A stretch of 64,000 nt of DNA from Anaerolineae bacterium (lineage in GTDB: Bacteria; Chloroflexota; Anaerolineae; Anaerolineales; E44-bin32), in the NCBI GenBank assembly GCA_011174825.1, contig DUEZ01000078.1, positions 27,947 through 91,946 on the forward strand, in the 5' to 3' direction. Position 1 is the first letter of the stretch. Every line of letters starts with the position of its first letter. Of the stretch, positions 41,856 through 61,857 are shown in pieces. The position numbers were made by a program, and so were the translations under genes. The notes beneath the pieces are model-generated. The model saw nothing but the letters and a program-made list of their open reading frames with translations. It searched no databases and was not told the origin of the DNA.

Positions 41856-43676
41856 CTATTCCTCTAGGTTCAATCCTTCGTAGATTGAATCAGGAGGAAT
41901 TTCCAACATGATCACCAAACGTTCAACGATCTCACGGAACACTGGCGCCGCAACCACAGATCCCCAGGGGGAGGTTTGCGGCTTATCCACACGTACAAAC
42001 ACGAGGAATTCTGGATCCCTCACCGGGCCCCAACCCACGAAGGACGCCACTGTCCAGCGGGGGTCGTAACCAAATTCACCGGGTATTTGTGCTGTGCCCG
42101 TCTTACCTGCCAGCTGATACCCAGCTACATGAGCGAAATTCGTTTCTCCACTCAGCGACTTTGTCAACATGTTTGTTAATGTCTCGGCTGTCTCGCGTGA
42201 GATCGGCTGTCCTAGAACCGTTGTTTTAGGCCAATAAACACCATCCGGACCGACAACTTCGAGCACCACATGTGGTTGCACCATGACACCCTGATTAGCA
42301 ATTGCGCCAACGGCTGTAATCAGTTGGATGGAGGTAACAGAAACGCCTTGGCCAAAAGCATTGGTCCCCAAATCAGACTCGGTCCAATCTGGATGGCGTG
42401 GCGTTCGTAATTGCCCTGAAACCTCGCCTGCCAAATCGATCCCTGTCTGCTTTCCGATCCCGAATGCTCTCAGATACTCATAGAACATCGGCGCGCCCAA
42501 CTTCTCCGAGGAGACATACGCCAAACACACATTCAACGAGTGTTCCATGCACCCGAGCATCGTTTGCGATCCCCATGCCCTGCCATCCCAATTTCGGATC
42601 GTGTGACCTCCCACTTCGATTTGGCCAGTATCGATGAATTCTTCCTCGGGCGTCACCAATCCAGCATCGAGCGCCGCAGCCATGGTCAAGACTTTAAAGG
42701 TTGAACCTGGTTCAAATTGCCCGGCAACGGCGGGATTAATCACGGGCTCTTCCTCGTCGTCCTCACTCTCCTCTTCCGACCTCTCCTCTGGAGGCAGCCA
42801 TGGTTCGTAATTGTTGGGATCGAGAGGAGGCCAAATTGCCATGGCGAGGATCTCGCCATTTTCGGGATCCATTACGATCACTTGTCCACTTTCTGCATTA
42901 TCGGCTTCAATCGTTTGTTTGAGGATGTCCTCCACCATCTGCTGGATGTCTAAATCAATGGTCAGCACCAGGTTGACTCCGGCAGGAGGATCTGGTCTCA
43001 GCCTTGCCTCAAGCGGAATGTAACCACGTTCGATGGTGATCGATCTTCCGACAAGCCAGTCATCGTAGTAACCTTCAACCCCGAAATATCCTTTACCCTT
43101 TTGATTCACGAAGCCGATTACATGACCAGCCAACGATCCTGCTGGATAAGCTCTACTCGGAGCAGGGACGAGTGATAAACCGCTCAGATCAGGTGCTTCG
43201 GGATCCTCCAGGAAACCTTTGAGCACATCAGCAGCGATCTGATCGACAGTGATGGGCCAACGCTTCCCACCGCTGATCTCGCGTGTCAGGCGGATGCGTA
43301 GTTGACCTTCATCTACCCATTCGTACGTTAGCTGGCTATAAACATCATCGAAAGGAAGAACCAAAGCACGAGACAATACGGCCGCGATTTGTTTCTTACT
43401 GGTCTCAGTAAGTTGGCGAACCTCAACCTCTAAGTAGTACAGCGGGACGTTCGAAGCCAGGACTCTTCCATCTCGGTCGTAAATCACGCCTCTGGTCGGT
43501 TCGACCTTGTCCACCTGCTCGGCAACAATTTCCTCGATAGCTGCGAATGCAGGGGCGTAGGGGCCAAACTGGACGCGGATCAACTGAACTACCATGGCGA
43601 GTACAACAATCGCCACAAGGGCCAACAGCATCCGAATTCGACGCCGAGACGGTCTTTGCTCCATCACTTTCTTCAC
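41856..43676 (-). CDS. ftsI: Class B penicillin-binding protein (FtsI)
   Basis: RGVIYDR, STFK (SxxK), SLN (SxN) and KTG motifs; exact start uncertain. Confidence 0.93.
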   Translation of the reverse strand: MKKVMEQRPSRRRIRMLLALVAIVVLAMVVQLIRVQFGPYAPAFAAIEEIVAEQVDKVEPTRGVIYDRDGRVLASNVPLYYLEVEVRQLTETSKKQIAAVLSRALVLPFDDVYSQLTYEWVDEGQLRIRLTREISGGKRWPITVDQIAADVLKGFLEDPEAPDLSGLSLVPAPSRAYPAGSLAGHVIGFVNQKGKGYFGVEGYYDDWLVGRSITIERGYIPLEARLRPDPPAGVNLVLTIDLDIQQMVEDILKQTIEADNAESGQVIVMDPENGEILAMAIWPPLDPNNYEPWLPPEERSEEESEDDEEEPVINPAVAGQFEPGSTFKVLTMAAALDAGLVTPEEEFIDTGQIEVGGHTIRNWDGRAWGSQTMLGCMEHSLNVCLAYVSSEKLGAPMFYEYLRAFGIGKQTGIDLAGEVSGQLRTPRHPDWTESDLGTNAFGQGVSVTSIQLITAVGAIANQGVMVQPHVVLEVVGPDGVYWPKTTVLGQPISRETAETLTNMLTKSLSGETNFAHVAGYQLAGKTGTAQIPGEFGYDPRWTVASFVGWGPVRDPEFLVFVRVDKPQTSPWGSVVAAPVFREIVERLVIMLEIPPDSIYEGLNLEE

Positions 43677-43681
43677 TTAAT

Positions 43682-44122
43682 TCACCAACCCAGCCAACGA
43701 AGTAGCCATTCACCAAGTGTTTCGGTGTAGGCAGGAGATAACATCCCCTCGCCAGTGTTGGTAGACGCTGGTGGTCGAGGTGCGATAAACGGTAGTGGAG
43801 GTGTGTAATCCTTCAAGAGGATGTAGTCAATCTCGGCAGGATAAGCGTATCGAAACCCTAGCCCGAGAGCACGTTGATACATCCTTTCCGGTGAGGTCAT
43901 TTCCGCTAATGTCGCTCCCATTTCAGCGTTGTAGCGAAGCAATTCCGCCTGTTGCCTCTGTAGATCAAGGACTTGACGACCCGCTCGAGCATGCCGAGCA
44001 TTTACCGTCAAGTACATTCCACCGATGATCAATAATGCGATCAACGGCAGCATGGATCCACTGGTCAGCCGAATTTGGACACGCCAGGGCGCTTGTTGAA
44101 AAGCCTGGAAACGACGTCTCAT
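43682..44122 (-). CDS. FtsL-like cell division protein
   Basis: Single TM plus coiled coil between rsmH and ftsI; start at MRRRFQ. Confidence 0.7.
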   Translation of the reverse strand: MRRRFQAFQQAPWRVQIRLTSGSMLPLIALLIIGGMYLTVNARHARAGRQVLDLQRQQAELLRYNAEMGATLAEMTSPERMYQRALGLGFRYAYPAEIDYILLKDYTPPLPFIAPRPPASTNTGEGMLSPAYTETLGEWLLRWLGW

Positions 44123-44167
44123 CTCATCCTCAACGCGACGGACTAAGCAACCTACACAGTGCAAGGT

Positions 44168-45121
44168 TCATGCCAATTCGATCCTTTCTGCTACACGTAA
44201 CCTGGCACTCCGGGATCGCGGATTGGCCTCCAATTCCGATATGTCTGGCCTAAGCGGACGTTTTGTGATCACCTGTAATCGAGCCTGATGATCACACGTA
44301 CAAACCACTTGATCCGGTGGGCAAATGCAATCAGCGCTCTCACGCCGGTATATTCTTTTAACCAGTCGATCCTCCAGCGAATGGAACGAGATCACCGCGA
44401 TCCGACCACCAGGAGCTATCCGATCGATAGCTTGCTCCAGCCCTTCCACCAAGGCATTCAACTCGTCATTGACCGCGATACGCAGGGCTTGAAACGTCCG
44501 AGTAGCTGGATGTATCTTCCTTCGCCCCCCCTTCACTACTCGGGTAATGAGCTCCGCCAACTCATGCGTCGTATGTAGAGGTCTGGCCTTAACGATTGCC
44601 CTCGCCACACGACGCGCGCGAGGCTCCTCTCCGTACCGAACGATCAAATCTGCCAGTTCTCCCTCGGGCAGGCCGTTGACGAGATCTGCTGCTGTCGTTG
44701 CTTGCGTTGGATCGAAACGCATGTCTAAGGGGCCATCCAAACGAAAAGAGAAACCTCTCTTCGCATCCTCTAAAACCATCGAAGAAACACCAAGATCGAG
44801 GAGCAAACCATCCGCGGTTTTCCAACCGAGTTCATCAGCAAACACTGCCAGATCGCGATAGGATCCGTGTCGTAGATGCACACGGTCTTCAAACTCTGCA
44901 AGGCGATCCTGCACAAGCTCCAACGCTGCTGGATCGAGGTCGATGCCTAACACCTGGCCGTCCGGAGAGGAAGCCTCAAGTATTCCTAAGCTGTGACCTC
45001 CAGCTCCAATCGTGCCATCTATATAGCGCCCTCCCGCACCCGGTCTGAGCGCGTGAAGAACGCGTTGGTAAAGTACCGGGGTATGTCCACGGACATGAGC
45101 GTCGTCAACTGACGCGCTCAT
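44168..45121 (-). CDS. rsmH: 16S rRNA m4C1402 methyltransferase
   Basis: HTPVL, DGTIGAGGHS, DLGVSS, FQALRIAVN, SFHSLED and NPRSRSA motifs. Confidence 0.98.
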   Translation of the reverse strand: MSASVDDAHVRGHTPVLYQRVLHALRPGAGGRYIDGTIGAGGHSLGILEASSPDGQVLGIDLDPAALELVQDRLAEFEDRVHLRHGSYRDLAVFADELGWKTADGLLLDLGVSSMVLEDAKRGFSFRLDGPLDMRFDPTQATTAADLVNGLPEGELADLIVRYGEEPRARRVARAIVKARPLHTTHELAELITRVVKGGRRKIHPATRTFQALRIAVNDELNALVEGLEQAIDRIAPGGRIAVISFHSLEDRLVKRIYRRESADCICPPDQVVCTCDHQARLQVITKRPLRPDISELEANPRSRSARLRVAERIELA

Positions 45122-45124
45122 TGC

Positions 45125-45562
45125 TTACCCCGCTGAAAGATCAAATTCTGAGAAACGCCGAGCGTTGATATCCGGATCGGCTACCGAAGTTAGTTCTATA
45201 TCCCAGGCATCGGCGCTCCAAATCTCAAAGTATTCCCCCGCACCAATAATCGCCGTCTCTCCGTCTAAATGTGCCCACTCACGAAGATAAGGTGGTATGA
45301 GGATGCGACCAGATCCATCAAGTGTGACTTCGGTCGCTCTACCGAAAATTAGGCGCCGCATTGCACGCGCTTCAGGATTGGTGTTGCTGAGTTTCGTTGC
45401 TCGCTGGGCCAGCACGTTATAGCTTTCTGTGGTATAAACAATTACGTTACGTTCGAAACCCTGGGTAATATACGCTCCTGAGGAGAGCGCAGCGCGATAC
45501 CGCACCGGGATGGTTAGCCGGCCTTTCGCATCGATGTGGTGAGTGAACTGGCCTAGGAACAT
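45125..45562 (-). CDS. mraZ: Transcriptional regulator MraZ
   Basis: IDAKGRLTIP and LDGSGRILIP repeats; FEIW. Confidence 0.97.
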   Translation of the reverse strand: MFLGQFTHHIDAKGRLTIPVRYRAALSSGAYITQGFERNVIVYTTESYNVLAQRATKLSNTNPEARAMRRLIFGRATEVTLDGSGRILIPPYLREWAHLDGETAIIGAGEYFEIWSADAWDIELTSVADPDINARRFSEFDLSAG

Positions 45563-45945: not shown

Positions 45946-45952
45946 TTGACTG

Positions 45953-46452
45953 TGGCTCGACCTATAAGCCGCGTTCTGTCCGAAAGATATCTGCGGTTTA
46001 CGGGCTCACTCTTTGCCAAACCGCTAGGCTAGTTTGACGAATTTACAACAGAGCGGATCCTTCATCCCTCAGACATCGATCTGAGCGATCATCTATCTCG
46101 GCACACACGTCACCGTGAGGCTCATGCGGCCTACCCGGAGCTCAAGGAAGACGAGCAACCTCCCGTCCGTATACGGACTTCGCTCCTGCTTGGCCTTGCT
46201 CCCGATGGGGGTTGCCTGGCCGCTGACATCACTGCCAACGCCGGTGGTCTCTTACACCACCTTTTCACCCTTACCTGATCGAAGGAGATCAATGGCAAAG
46301 GAACCCTTCGCCACGACCCATAGACCAGGCGGTCCTTTTCTGTGGTCCTTTCCGCGGGTCTCCCCGCCCGGGTATTACCCGGCATCGAGCTCTGCGGAGC
46401 GCGGACTTTCCTCAGGCGGTCAAAGCCACCTGCGATCGCCCGGTCGATCCAT
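45953..46452 (-). ncRNA. rnpB: RNase P RNA, bacterial type A
   Basis: GAGGAAAGTCC, ACAGAAA, GGGTGAAAAGGTGGTGTAAGAGACCACC, GAGCAAG, AGATAGATGATCGC and ACAGAACGCGGCTTA; P1 TGGATCGACC/GGTCGAGCCA. Confidence 0.97.
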
Positions 46453-46545
46453 CAGTCGATTCCATCATACCTTCCAAATACTCCGTCGTCAACCACATTC
46501 ATCTTCTTGATTTGATGACCAATATTGAATGCATATAAACAAAAA

Positions 46546-46701
46546 CTCACCCTGAGCCTGCTTTATCCTGCCTGTCCTGAGCTCGCCGAGGGGAGCATAT
46601 CGAAGGGTCGAAGGATGCGTACTACAGTGATCCTTCGACAGGTTTTGTCCTGAGTCATGTCCTGAGCTTATCGAAGGATTGTCGAAGGGCTAAGGATGAC
46701 T
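46546..46701. repeat. Nested cluster of six 23-24 bp CCTGAG..CGAAGG elements
   Basis: Two three-level nests; removing the inserts leaves an inverted doublet (see findings). Confidence 0.85.
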
Positions 46702-46945
46702 TTCGTTCTTGGGCTTCATCGTTTTCATCGTGATCTAGTACTAAGTGTAGATTCTCGAAAATCTTGCACATTCCCACCACCTGTATTGTATTGAGAGGTT
46801 GAGTGGCAGCTCAAACACAAAGAGCCCTTTTCAACTTCAACTGAAGCCTTGTGCTCACCATTGGAGACCGCTCATCTCCAGCTCAGGCATTAACCCTCTT
46901 AACGCATACTTATGGTGCACTAACGCATTTCTAATGGTTTTCGCC

Positions 46946-46974
46946 TTGAATACATTTAATGAGCAAGCTATAAT
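46946..46974 (+). promoter_or_regulatory. Sigma70-type promoter of the FmdB-family gene
   Basis: TTGAAT-N17-TATAAT followed by AAGGAG RBS. Confidence 0.7.
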
Positions 46975-47000
46975 TCTCTTGGTAAAGGAGAACGTGAGCG

Positions 47001-52198: not shown

Positions 52199-52321
52199 AG
52201 TACAGTCATCCTTCGACAGGCTCAGGATGACTGTACTCTTGGTTTCAATCCACATATTACGCTGATGCGCAGACGAAAGCCTGCGACTACATAAATCGGG
52301 GCGGGGTCACCCCGCCCCTAC
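52199..52321. repeat. Mixed REP cluster
   Basis: AGTACAGTCATCCTTCGACAGGCTCAGGATGACTGTACT hairpin, CGCAGACGAAAGCCTGCGACTAC and GGGGCGGGGTCACCCCGCCCCTAC. Confidence 0.85.
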
Positions 52322-54798: not shown

Positions 54799-55024
54799 CT
54801 TCATTACTAATTCATAAAGAAAAGCGACTTGGGCACGCTTGTGAGCAGAAACTCAGTCGCTTTTTCGCTTAAACCACATGAATCAATCGGCTATCATTGT
54901 CCAATATCAATCTCTACCTTTTTCCTTCATAATATTCCGATAATCACGCTGCTCTTGTGTTACGGATCAAGAACAGCAACCCGTGGAGTTCACCCTCCAA
55001 CCTTCCCGGGATCGTCCAAAGGAT

Positions 55025-56173
55025 TTACGGTATTTCACTCCCGCCTAATGTCACTTCGACATCGAACCGATCTCCATTTCTTACCACCCCCAGGACGACT
55101 TGATCTCCGGGTTGATGTTTAATGAGTTGGTTGATATAGGGATGCTCAGGGTCAAACGCTTGATCATCCATTGAGATCAGAATGTCACCACGACGGAGCC
55201 CACTCTGATCCGCTGGTCCCTCAGGGGTCACCTCGGAAAGGTAAACGCCGTATTCAACAGGGAGTCGATAACGACTGGCAATCCCCGGGGTGATCCACTG
55301 CCATCGCACACCCAGGAAAGGTCGTGACACAAAACCCTTTTCGATGAGTTGATCAGCTACCGCCTGAGCCGAATTACTAGGAATTGCAAATCCCAACCCC
55401 TCAGCGATCGCTCCCCCGGCCTCACTCCCACGGACGATTAACGTGTTGATCCCGATCATTTGACCAGCAAGGTTTACCAGCGGACCTCCAGAATTTCCTG
55501 TATTGATCGCTGCGTCGGTCTGGATCAGATCTTCCATGAGAAACCCGCTGCTGGTCTCGATCGACCGTCCTATGGCGCTGATCACCCCAACGGTAACCGT
55601 ATTCATAAAACTGCCGAGCGGAGACCCAATAGCGATCACAGTTTCGCCTGAGTCCAAGACGTTCGAGTTTCCCCATGTGATGACTTCTGGCATCTCACCC
55701 TCGGCTTGAATAACTGCAAGATCTGCATAAGGGTCGACCCCAACAAGATCAGCTGGGAGGATGGTGCCATCTGCCAGGATGACCTCCAACCGTTCTGCCC
55801 CCTCCACCACATGATTGTTGGTCACGATATGTCCATCAAACGAAATGATCGCACCGGAGCCTGAGCTGGATCTCTCGATAACACCACCGAAGAAAGTAAC
55901 CCGCGGACTTAAATGACTGATCACTGTGACCACCGCTGGTTCGACACGTGCCACAACTTCCGTAATGGCCGTGGTGATTTCCAACGAAATGGAACTTGGC
56001 TCAAGAGCCTCTTGTGTGGGACTACTGATGGGTTGGGTTGGCGAGGCGCTTCGTTGGGCTGAATAAACAATGGTCCCACCAACTACCCCTCCAATCACGC
56101 CAGATATGAGCATGACCAAGATCAATGTCAGGACATACCTGTTCCATCGTACCGAGGATAAACTCTCTTTCAT
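55025..56173 (-). CDS. htrA: HtrA/DegP family serine protease with one PDZ domain
   Basis: TM anchor, TNNHVV, DLAV, QTDAAINTGNSGGPL and a PDZ domain; AAGGAGG RBS. Confidence 0.93.
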   Translation of the reverse strand: MKESLSSVRWNRYVLTLILVMLISGVIGGVVGGTIVYSAQRSASPTQPISSPTQEALEPSSISLEITTAITEVVARVEPAVVTVISHLSPRVTFFGGVIERSSSGSGAIISFDGHIVTNNHVVEGAERLEVILADGTILPADLVGVDPYADLAVIQAEGEMPEVITWGNSNVLDSGETVIAIGSPLGSFMNTVTVGVISAIGRSIETSSGFLMEDLIQTDAAINTGNSGGPLVNLAGQMIGINTLIVRGSEAGGAIAEGLGFAIPSNSAQAVADQLIEKGFVSRPFLGVRWQWITPGIASRYRLPVEYGVYLSEVTPEGPADQSGLRRGDILISMDDQAFDPEHPYINQLIKHQPGDQVVLGVVRNGDRFDVEVTLGGSEIP

Positions 56174-61120: not shown

Positions 61121-61208
61121 TCAACGGCGGCCCTTCGGCATTGCTCAGGACGAGCGTGGGAGCCGCCTCTACTCTTAAGAATAGTAAGCCGGGCTCCCAC
61201 GCCCGGCT
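61121..61208. repeat. REP doublet downstream of RAYT, carrying a 24-bp insert
   Basis: Near-direct repeat of 61795-61857. Confidence 0.85.
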
Positions 61209-61794: not shown

Positions 61795-61857
61795 CAACGG
61801 CGGCGTGGGAGCCGCCTCTGCTCTTAAGAATAATAGGCCGGGCGTGGAAGCCCGGCC
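61795..61857. repeat. REP doublet upstream of RAYT
   Basis: GGCGGC-GTGGGA-GCCGCC and GCCGGGC-GTGGAA-GCCCGGC separated by a spacer containing TCTTAAGA. Confidence 0.85.

Follow-up and report, generated by a model that had tools for sequence, protein, structure and literature searches.

How can a DNA unit of only 23–24 nucleotides (nt) come to lie inside copies of itself? The question is raised by a 64,000-nt stretch of an Anaerolineae genome (hereafter the window; C79:27947–91946 of the source genome G000, which is 3.85 Mb in 102 contigs with 92% completeness and 6% contamination). At 46546–46701 of the window there is an inverted doublet of a hairpin resembling the repetitive extragenic palindromes (REPs), formed of a stem and CCTGAG-N5-CGAAGG, and each arm of the doublet contains a 24-nt unit with a 23-nt unit inside it. 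Comparison with a relative of the same genus shows that the unit is a discrete module that is gained or lost precisely, without a target-site duplication (TSD) or terminal inverted repeats (TIRs), and the two nests in the window probably reached this locus ready-made. The features of the nested doublet are as follows, with a caret marking the point at which a sequence is interrupted.

46548–46617, plus strand: left REP arm, a host hairpin (CACCCTGAGCCTG at 46548–46560 and TCGAAGGATG at 46608–46617) split by 47 nt
46561–46607, plus strand: left 24-nt unit, CTTTAT-CCTG^AG-CATAT-CGAAGG-G, in two parts (46561–46570 and 46594–46607) split at 46570/46594
46571–46593, plus strand: left inner 23-nt unit, CCTGT-CCTGAG-CTCGC-CGAGGG-G, inside the 24-nt unit at CCTG^AG
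46618–46629, no strand: spacer between the inverted REP arms, the loop of the doublet
46630–46700, minus strand: right REP arm, an inverted host (ATCCTTCGACAG at 46630–46641 and GCTAAGGATGAC at 46689–46700) split by 47 nt
46642–46688, plus strand: right 24-nt unit, GTTTTGT-CCTGAG^ATTGT-CGAAGG, in two parts (46642–46654 and 46678–46688) split at 46654/46678
46655–46677, plus strand: right inner 23-nt unit, TCATGT-CCTGAG-CTTAT-CGAAGG, with an exact core at 46661–46677
52200–52236, minus strand: stand-alone REP hairpin without nesting, GTACAGTCATCC-TGAGCCTGTCGAA-GGATGACTGTAC, with one mismatch to the host of the right arm

All four units are in the plus orientation despite the mutual inversion of their hosts, and removal of any one of them regenerates CCTGAG-N5-CGAAGG. 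The junctions are ambiguous by 0–2 nt, and neither a TSD nor a TIR was seen at the two nests. The left inner unit has a degenerate right hexamer (CGAGGG) and is scored as a core with one mismatch (C79 74522). Uninterrupted relatives of the left host, AGCACCCTGAGCCTGTCGAAGGGTGC, are present elsewhere in G000, the simple doublets of this genome have 12–20-nt spacers, and the hairpin at 52200–52236 is predicted to fold as RNA with a 9-bp stem (z = −3.4). Within the window CCTGAG-N4-9-CGAAGG has three matches against 0.06 expected, and none of 100 shuffles reaches three. The initial annotation of this stretch had quoted the nested sequence, described four inserts of 23–24 nt in one orientation, and taken the outer hosts for an inverted doublet, the second of which matches an uninterrupted copy; the sequence is as quoted, letter for letter, unit parsing recovers the four inserts, and the uninterrupted copy is the hairpin at 52200–52236 with its single mismatch. 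It had also raised misassembly, for which we compared independently assembled contigs (rather than raw reads). A Logan contig from a different sample and study (run X2) spans 46443–47000 with one differing letter and no gaps, a contig from run X4 spans 46337–46698 with three differing letters, and contigs from X3 and X5 cover 46300/46395–46669. Because these contigs from other samples carry the same structure, with one to three differences and no gaps where they cross it, the nesting is not a misassembly.

The precise gain or loss of the unit is seen most directly in a single-contig genome of the same genus (G004), which contains 72 cores; 60 regions around these were compared with G000. Syntenic flanks (74–93% identity) are present in G000 for 45 of 65 clusters, 29 of which have no exact core in G000. 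Sixteen intervals are too diverged to read and nine are clean, and the orthologous differences are eight of 23 or 24 nt and one of 34 nt. One example is a 24-nt difference at the apex of a doublet of the repeat family REP-B (L148/C72). A second is a 24-nt unit (CATTGT-CCTGAG-CATGT-CGAAGG-A) that sits at CCTG^T in a REP hairpin loop shared by the two genomes (L153/C98); the unit is present in G004 and absent from G000, and is a true self-nest. A third element (L128/C77) has two reciprocal sites, with 23 nt present only in G000 and 24 nt present only in G004. The others are differences of 23 nt (L183/C15), 24 nt (L164/C64) and a net 23 nt (L152/C63), a 24-nt change in copy number (L134/C31), and a 34-nt difference involving a longer variant of the unit (L147/C22). 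No duplication of target bases and no TIR, by which transposable elements of the miniature inverted-repeat kind (MITEs) are recognised, was seen at the clean differences.

Paralogous sites of REPs flanking genes for REP-associated tyrosine transposases (RAYTs) form a second series of empty and filled targets. The window contains a RAYT pseudogene, flanked by a hairpin that we refer to as REP-A (GGCGGC-GTGGGA-GCCGCC), with these features:

61132–61155, minus strand: 24-nt unit GCTCGT-CCTGAG-CAATGC-CGAAGG in the REP-A loop, sitting between stem and loop
61269–61778, minus strand: RAYT gene broken by an in-frame TAA (Y1_Tnp 35 bits; NF047646 56 bits for the 70-amino acid (aa) N-terminal piece)
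61799–61816, no strand: empty REP-A hairpin GGCGGC-GTGGGA-GCCGCC across the RAYT pseudogene, a paralogous empty site

The filled REP-A copy occupies 61126–61167 (GGCGGC at 61126–61131, GTGGGA at 61156–61161 and GCCGCC at 61162–61167), and its orthologue in G004 is filled too. The REP-A half-site has 24 matches in the genome, 11 of them empty, four filled at the same position and nine unrelated. The one intact RAYT gene in G000 (C83:53916–54461; NF047646 96 bits against a cut-off of 80) has REP-B doublets on both sides with a unit at the apex. REP-B has 65 matches, of which 34 are empty, 13 carry a single unit, four carry a nested pair, one is irregular, and in 13 no left arm can be recognised. 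The REP-B inserts vary in both the sequence and the length of the spacer while the REP-B arms are nearly identical, which points to several insertion events or to weak constraint on the spacer. We note that at the G004 locus matching the window RAYT (L136) the same flanks are 319 nt apart rather than 988 nt, the RAYT gene being seemingly missing and the filled REP-A kept. We also note a 507-aa frame at C1:13900–15640 (L114) with a response-regulator-like N-terminus and a C-terminal Y1_Tnp-like domain (35 bits); open frames of ~500–700 aa with the same Y1_Tnp-like match recur in many relatives.

A third line of evidence is in a protein-coding gene outside the window. In G000, recF (C31:3740–5104, locus L187/L220; TIGR00611, 293 bits) encodes TFEAVQDR-PFDVAQDR, two 8-aa repeats derived from two inverted 24-nt units, and RecF of G004 has three 8-aa repeats from three 24-nt units. 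None of nine relatives, the same-genus genome G001 and eight others, has units at that position of RecF. The comparison reads as a polarised gain, in which unique coding sequence acquired an in-frame insertion whose copy number later changed. In-frame 24-nt copies in proteins had been predicted in the initial annotation, and the RecF peptides FEAVQDRP and FDVAQDRP are such copies. The filled and empty site pairs are thus of three kinds, orthologous pairs, a paralogous series of empty, single and double sites, and the polarised recF gain, and they agree with the earlier claim that a unit of 23–24 nt with neither TIR nor TSD is written into or removed from DNA, the loops of its own copies included.

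The window units belong to a large family in G000, with 130 exact cores having an N5 spacer and 34 having N6, 164 altogether, against ~0.46 expected per spacer length (~1 in total). The module consists of a 5–7-nt leader (typically YYNTGT), the core CCTGAG-N5/6-CGAAGG and 0–1 further nt. In its plain form it is a hairpin whose stem, GTCATCC...GGATGAC or AGCACCC...GGGTGCT, is specific to the family, and such hairpins are often arranged as inverted doublets ~40 nt apart (C22 34365/34406, C64 107/148, C69 77852/77893, C76 153634/153675), similar to the REP doublets forming hairpins known as REPINs; one inverted doublet is conserved between G000 and G004. The stemless form of 23 or 24 nt is found within other copies and within other repeats. 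Only 51 of 281 cores with no more than one mismatch are in open reading frames (ORFs) of at least 200 aa, although such ORFs make up 80% of the genome, and the family is therefore extragenic; most of these 51 are in the one-mismatch class expected by chance. In the 34-nt variant CCTGAG-N6-CGAAGG is enclosed by a separate stem, CGGAGCC...GGCTCCG; this variant is present at C22:6392–6995, C64:102440–102898 and other places, with the loop of a GTCATCCTGAGCG.AGCGAAGGATC repeat as its host. Other hairpin repeat families, some of which host the unit, are found at 52288–52320 and at many loci in G000 (GGGGCGGGGTCACCCCGCCCC, GTCATTCTGAG...CTCAGAATGAC, GTCATTGCGAGC...GCGAAGCAATC).

If the left (L) and right (R) hexamers grew separately there should be many unbalanced forms. 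The nest pattern L-L-R-R has 13 matches in G000, and around the 164 exact cores an outer hexamer is found on both sides in 15 instances, as R only in 13 and as L only in one. Nearly all of the 13 R-only cases are of the CCTG^AG class, where the outer left hexamer is split, and the balance favours whole-unit events. There are also head-to-tail arrays, with a 23-nt period at C85 ~54980–55090 in G000, and elsewhere at loci L034, L097 and L057, with periods of 23 nt in an alphaproteobacterial metagenome-assembled genome (MAG) and 24 nt in an Ignavibacteria MAG. Right-half-only expansions, in which CGAAGG is repeated two or three times, are present in other genomes.

The targets are mostly hairpin loops or apices, and a loop or apex, rather than a sequence, appears to be what they have in common. 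Within the unit itself the insertion points are CCTGAGC^CTGT, CCTGAGCCTG^T and CCTG^AG. REP-A is interrupted at the 3′ edge of its loop, as read in the orientation of the unit, REP-B where its two arms join, and another repeat again at a loop edge (GCGCC-TAGC^GGCGC). CCTG^ precedes two of the self-insertion classes, and other targets end in CCG, AGC(G), GAG or CAC(GC). Approximately nine target contexts can be told apart, of which three lie within the unit itself, five are other hairpin repeats (REP-A, REP-B and three more) and one is recF. Units lie in both orientations relative to the host, the same orientation being commoner (48 versus 19 in a permissive count of excisions of 17–40 nt, all of which regenerate cores). 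The earlier description, in which a very short unit is written into copies of itself, is essentially correct but covers too little; the unit does enter its own loop, but this is one target among several, with REP-A and REP-B loops or apices, other hairpins and one coding site.

The unit itself may form a small hairpin. As the two fixed hexamers flank a free spacer of 5–6 nt, we infer that they pair as a short stem of CCT/AGG, tandem G.A pairs (G.A, A.G) and a G-C pair closing the N5-6 loop. Tandem sheared G.A pairs are favoured by the context 5′-pyrimidine-GA-purine-3′, which is present on both strands of the proposed stem. At the pair L3-R4, T-A is found in 164 copies and the double change C-G in 29, with single changes in six and two (these being copies and not events).

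The window nests form part of a larger repeat upstream of the RNase P RNA gene:

46511–46750, no strand: composite repeated element of ~240 nt (MITE/REPIN-like frame, REP doublet and four nested units), where alone BLAST coverage against the genome exceeds 1
45949–46451, minus strand: RNase P RNA gene (RF00010, 244.6 bits)

The composite starts ~60 nt from the 5′ end of the RNase P RNA, and the nested structure is ~60–250 nt upstream of that end. Other copies of the composite have the outer flanks and the doublet in common with it, and vary in the content of the nests. The 47-nt composite of the left arm (the 24-nt unit with the 23-nt unit inside) recurs in three kinds of host, these being other left arms (three times in C77, and in C26 and C68), the apex of another repeat family (C18, C26, C68 and twice in C89) and a third hairpin (twice in C10), and the right-arm composite has sister copies at C79:95430 and C76:78679. 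Pre-nested composites are therefore copied whole, and the four units here probably do not represent four local events. Stepwise building of the nests at this locus, as the earlier reading of repeated insertion would have it, is improbable, both arms being members of multi-copy composite families. Four relatives (G004, G002, G001 and G005) lack the composite at the position orthologous to it, upstream of the RNase P RNA gene (rnpB); between G004 and G000 the flanks are 89% identical and enclose ~55 nt and ~440 nt, respectively. The most likely explanation is that the entire ~240-nt composite was gained as one unit. At C80:80272 there is a copy of the outer ~50-nt frame (AAGATTTGAT...TTCATCGTGAT) without any REP doublet, which suggests that the doublet is itself an insertion, adding one further level of nesting. 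We note that the RNase P RNA match is 503 nt for a model of 367 positions, so that the gene has extra sequence, and that directly downstream of rnpB (41856–45562, minus strand) is the start of a division cluster with MraZ, RsmH (MraW), a small ORF and a class B penicillin-binding protein.

Both the 17-nt core and the nesting are, as judged from genome matches, common to several phyla. Of 41 genomes of the order, 35 have the core, and a reversed-pattern control gives ~0 there. In an even sample of 301 genomes across the phylum 182 have it, with copies numbering up to 605 against 0–4 for the control; these phylum tallies take in three unpublished genomes. L-L-R-R nests are present in 15 of the 301, with none for the reversed pattern. 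In a distant family (f55) the nests have the form CCTGAGCCTG[CCTGT-CCTGAG-N5-CGAAGG-G]TCGAAGG, and their loci differ from genome to genome. In contigs representing one genome per species there are at least 113 stretches matching the exact hairpin pattern (23 specified bases). The record titles of the matches listed include Alphaproteobacteria, Vulcanimicrobiota/Eremiobacterota, Dehalococcoidia/SAR202/Limnocylindrales, Acidobacteriota, Elusimicrobia, Nitrospinaceae, Bacteroidota and Ignavibacteria, and nearly all carriers among them are MAGs, with one isolate by record title (Henriciella algicola). The stems differ by lineage and covary (CCTCAT/ATGAGG, CCTCGT/ACGAGG, CTCAC/GTGAG, GTCAT/ATGAC), the loop remaining constant. 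Ten nest matches were found among the 110 cores of a Vulcanimicrobiota MAG and 33, some of them overlapping, among the 173 cores of an Acidoferrum MAG. The alphaproteobacterial MAG with the 23-nt arrays has no nests among its 464 cores, and there are none in the Ignavibacteria MAG with the 24-nt arrays or in a Pseudomonadota MAG. Since the core-richest genomes (G127 with 605, G332 with 595 and G344 with 464) have no nests while others do, nesting depends on lineage and is not set by copy number.

No Rfam family other than RNase P and transfer RNAs reaches threshold in the window. There is a sub-threshold match at 46543–46608 (minus strand) to Atu_Ti3, a Rhizobiales small RNA (15.3 bits against a gathering score of 50, E = 1.4), whose consensus has CGGCGAGC...GGCAGGAUAA in common with the nested units, and that family may have been built on a related repeat. 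A 43-nt alphaproteobacterial copy matches two of 72,556 plasmid records at E ≤ 1e-3, and from these counts the family is not obviously the same as the annotated rhizobial megaplasmid repeats, RIME/Sm-repeat sequences being outside the comparison. A literature search with the core strings and derived peptide words, with supplements and possible repeat catalogues outside its scope, gave no relevant match.

How the nests arise has several conceivable answers, and the one we favour, with moderate confidence, is a structure-directed cut-and-join of a single-stranded hairpin module at the level of DNA. The module would move as a single-stranded hairpin that is cut out or copied, and would be joined into the single-stranded loops of extruded hairpins. 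The actor could be a structure-specific nuclease/ligase activity, either HUH/Y1-like or a widely conserved host enzyme, and insertion into the module's own loop would generate the Russian dolls. It is suggestive that, of the four REP sites beside RAYTs in G000, three contain a unit, and that the insertion points sit where the action of a REP nuclease would be expected.

Several observations weigh against a cut-and-join process. No enzyme linked to the module was found in the RAYT and Y1_Tnp comparisons. The CCTGAG hairpin is not beside the RAYT genes of G000, which are flanked by REP-A and REP-B, and the RAYTs of family f55 are likewise flanked by other REPs; none of 113 loci of other phyla has a RAYT homologue within 8 kb of the hairpin (tblastn with three queries), and G337 (94% completeness) has nests and no RAYT match. 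Among 41 relatives the number of Y1_Tnp matches does not go with the number of cores, with 57 cores and no Y1_Tnp matches in G002, and six matches and no cores in G036. Orientation shows no bias with local GC skew in G000, and none along the single contig of G004, where 34 plus and 38 minus copies are interleaved. There is no clear shared sequence at the target junctions. Folding offers little help, as nearest-neighbour folding gives no G.A stem and leaves an 11-nt loop, isolated 25-nt units fold no better than shuffles, and the stability of the whole nested doublet is unremarkable (z = −1.6). Two orthologous pairs could not be polarised as gain or loss, since the outgroup G002 lacks the host repeat, and a third search matched only dispersed repeat copies. 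Finally, because copying of composites or gene conversion can spread filled copies, the number of de novo events is bounded by the approximately nine target contexts and not by copy number.

With respect to strand bias, transposition of single-stranded DNA by elements of the IS200/IS605 type usually shows a bias of orientation with the replication strand, and passive copying of composites may blur any such signal. RAYTs were considered as the mobilising enzyme, and proximity, presence or absence, and gene counts give no consistent link, so that this role is neither shown nor excluded; the core-rich genomes without nests are themselves mixed for RAYT. The initial annotation had named an HUH/RAYT-like or another nuclease without assigning the mechanism; an HUH/RAYT enzyme in particular is not supported, with RAYTs flanked by other REPs, no RAYT match in G337 and Y1_Tnp counts that do not follow the cores.

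A possible although less probable alternative is that no dedicated enzyme is involved and that replication template switching, or gene conversion through short homologies between dispersed hairpins, writes the units. A polymerase stalled in an extruded hairpin would copy a unit elsewhere and return, with nests and arrays as by-products. This would account for the tandem arrays of 23- and 24-nt period, the two versus three copies in recF and the right-half-only expansions in other genomes; the composites are clearly copied whole, neither an enzyme association nor a strand bias was found, and the persistence of the family in many phyla without a cognate gene would follow. However, microhomology at the junctions is just 0–2 nt at unrelated targets (the REP-A loop, the REP-B apex, recF and others), the G000 units are almost always whole and balanced, and the fixed hexamers with a free spacer point to recognition of a structure. 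The nest-free state of the core-richest genomes also argues against it, nesting being no simple function of copy number.

An RNA intermediate, with reverse transcription or RNA-templated repair, is improbable. Such a route has reportedly been suggested for the small dispersed repeats (SDRs) of cyanobacteria, which are said to be of similar size and nested. The tandem-G.A hairpin would be a stable motif as RNA, and many copies are in transcribed intergenic regions, such as that upstream of rnpB. On the other hand, the units lie in both orientations relative to their hosts, and 23 nt is very short for both priming and integration.

Purely local tandem slippage or duplication, with no mobile unit, is more improbable still. 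The order L-L-R-R is formally equivalent to separate duplications of the left and right halves, and arrays do exist, but the inner and outer units differ in their spacer sequences, unbalanced forms are rare, and units are found in hosts that have no similarity to them. The initial annotation had itself named slippage as the explanation that would undo its reading, and the filled and empty pairs at heterologous sites elsewhere contradict an origin that is purely local. Misassembly of a repeat-rich metagenomic region, to which the 102 contigs, the 6% contamination and a rise in repeat-word depth over 46540–46700 might be thought to point, is barely credible given that contigs from three other samples cross all or most of the structure and that the same architectures are present in single-contig genomes.

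A bolder and rather unlikely extension is that the 23-nt hairpin is the smallest autonomous-looking mobile DNA seen so far, its 17-nt core being conserved in at least six phyla because a universal housekeeping enzyme acting on single-stranded DNA, and not a transposase of its own, recognises, cuts and rejoins it; it would then represent a pan-bacterial parasite of hairpin loops that can also lengthen proteins in 8-aa steps. A truly mobile unit would put the lower size limit of mobile DNA at ~23 nt outside the single cyanobacterial family from which elements of this kind had been described, with one conserved module at work in many phyla, most of them uncultured. The spread of REP-like and very small repeats now becomes testable with defined empty and filled hairpins and the polarised recF gain, and the genomes with and without nesting are suited to phylogenetic profiling; at least one carrier, Henriciella algicola, is in culture according to its record title. 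The units also have practical consequences, as they create spurious ORFs and peptides, break assemblies, alter promoter-proximal DNA (here upstream of rnpB) and can add 8-aa repeats to proteins.

The closest precedent is provided by the SDRs of Nostoc, to which we liken the module by description and not by the sequences of SDR1–8. These are reportedly 21–27-nt repeats, inserting into HIP1, mini-transposons and themselves; SDR1–8 are said to have a predicted common hairpin, and RNA intermediates are said to have been suggested for them. The module is similar in being dispersed units within that size range (23/24 nt) with many copies (164 exact cores), and in being nested in its own copies and in other palindromic repeats, with the same logic of filled and empty sites and no encoded protein. 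It differs in that SDRs are reported to be confined to the Nostocaceae and the core described here is found in MAGs of many phyla. The G000 sequencing runs are marine-sediment metagenomes, and Photo_RC has no match in G000 at 92% completeness, so that by this one test it is not a cyanobacterium. Its RsmH has 40–53% identity to the proteins of four named MAGs. The passages of later papers that cite Elhai et al. (2008) describe insertion of SDR5 in HIP1, state that no repeat of the SDR kind had turned up outside the Nostocaceae, and count SDRs among unexplained short repeats.

In comparison with the REP/REPIN-RAYT systems, as described by Bertels and Rainey (2011), the family is similar in consisting of short extragenic hairpins with high copy number and inverted doublets. 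G000 also encodes RAYTs, and TSDs and TIRs are absent. However, the CCTGAG hairpin flanks no RAYT that we found, and the REPs of the RAYTs themselves, REP-A and REP-B, are targets. REPs are normally lineage-specific and this core crosses phyla, and the moving unit is a single module of 23–24 nt and not a doublet as in REPINs. Elements of the IS200/IS605 type, with HUH Y1 transposases, bear hairpins and insert and excise precisely without duplication, as the module does; insertion into single-stranded DNA is a feature of these elements, and would only be expected of the module. Unlike them it has no fixed target of 4–5 nt, no replication-strand bias and no linked transposase, and it is ~30 times smaller than their smallest derivatives. 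The Rickettsia palindromic elements (RPEs), which are ~100–150 bp and known only from the Rickettsiales, are palindromes that add peptides in-frame to coding genes; the units in recF are similarly in-frame in a protein gene, and differ in being 24-nt units that give an 8-aa repeat. Micro-repeats of the SDR kind are already known, and those described here live in and beside REP systems; what is unusual is the conservation of one core across phyla and the presence of clean test sites.

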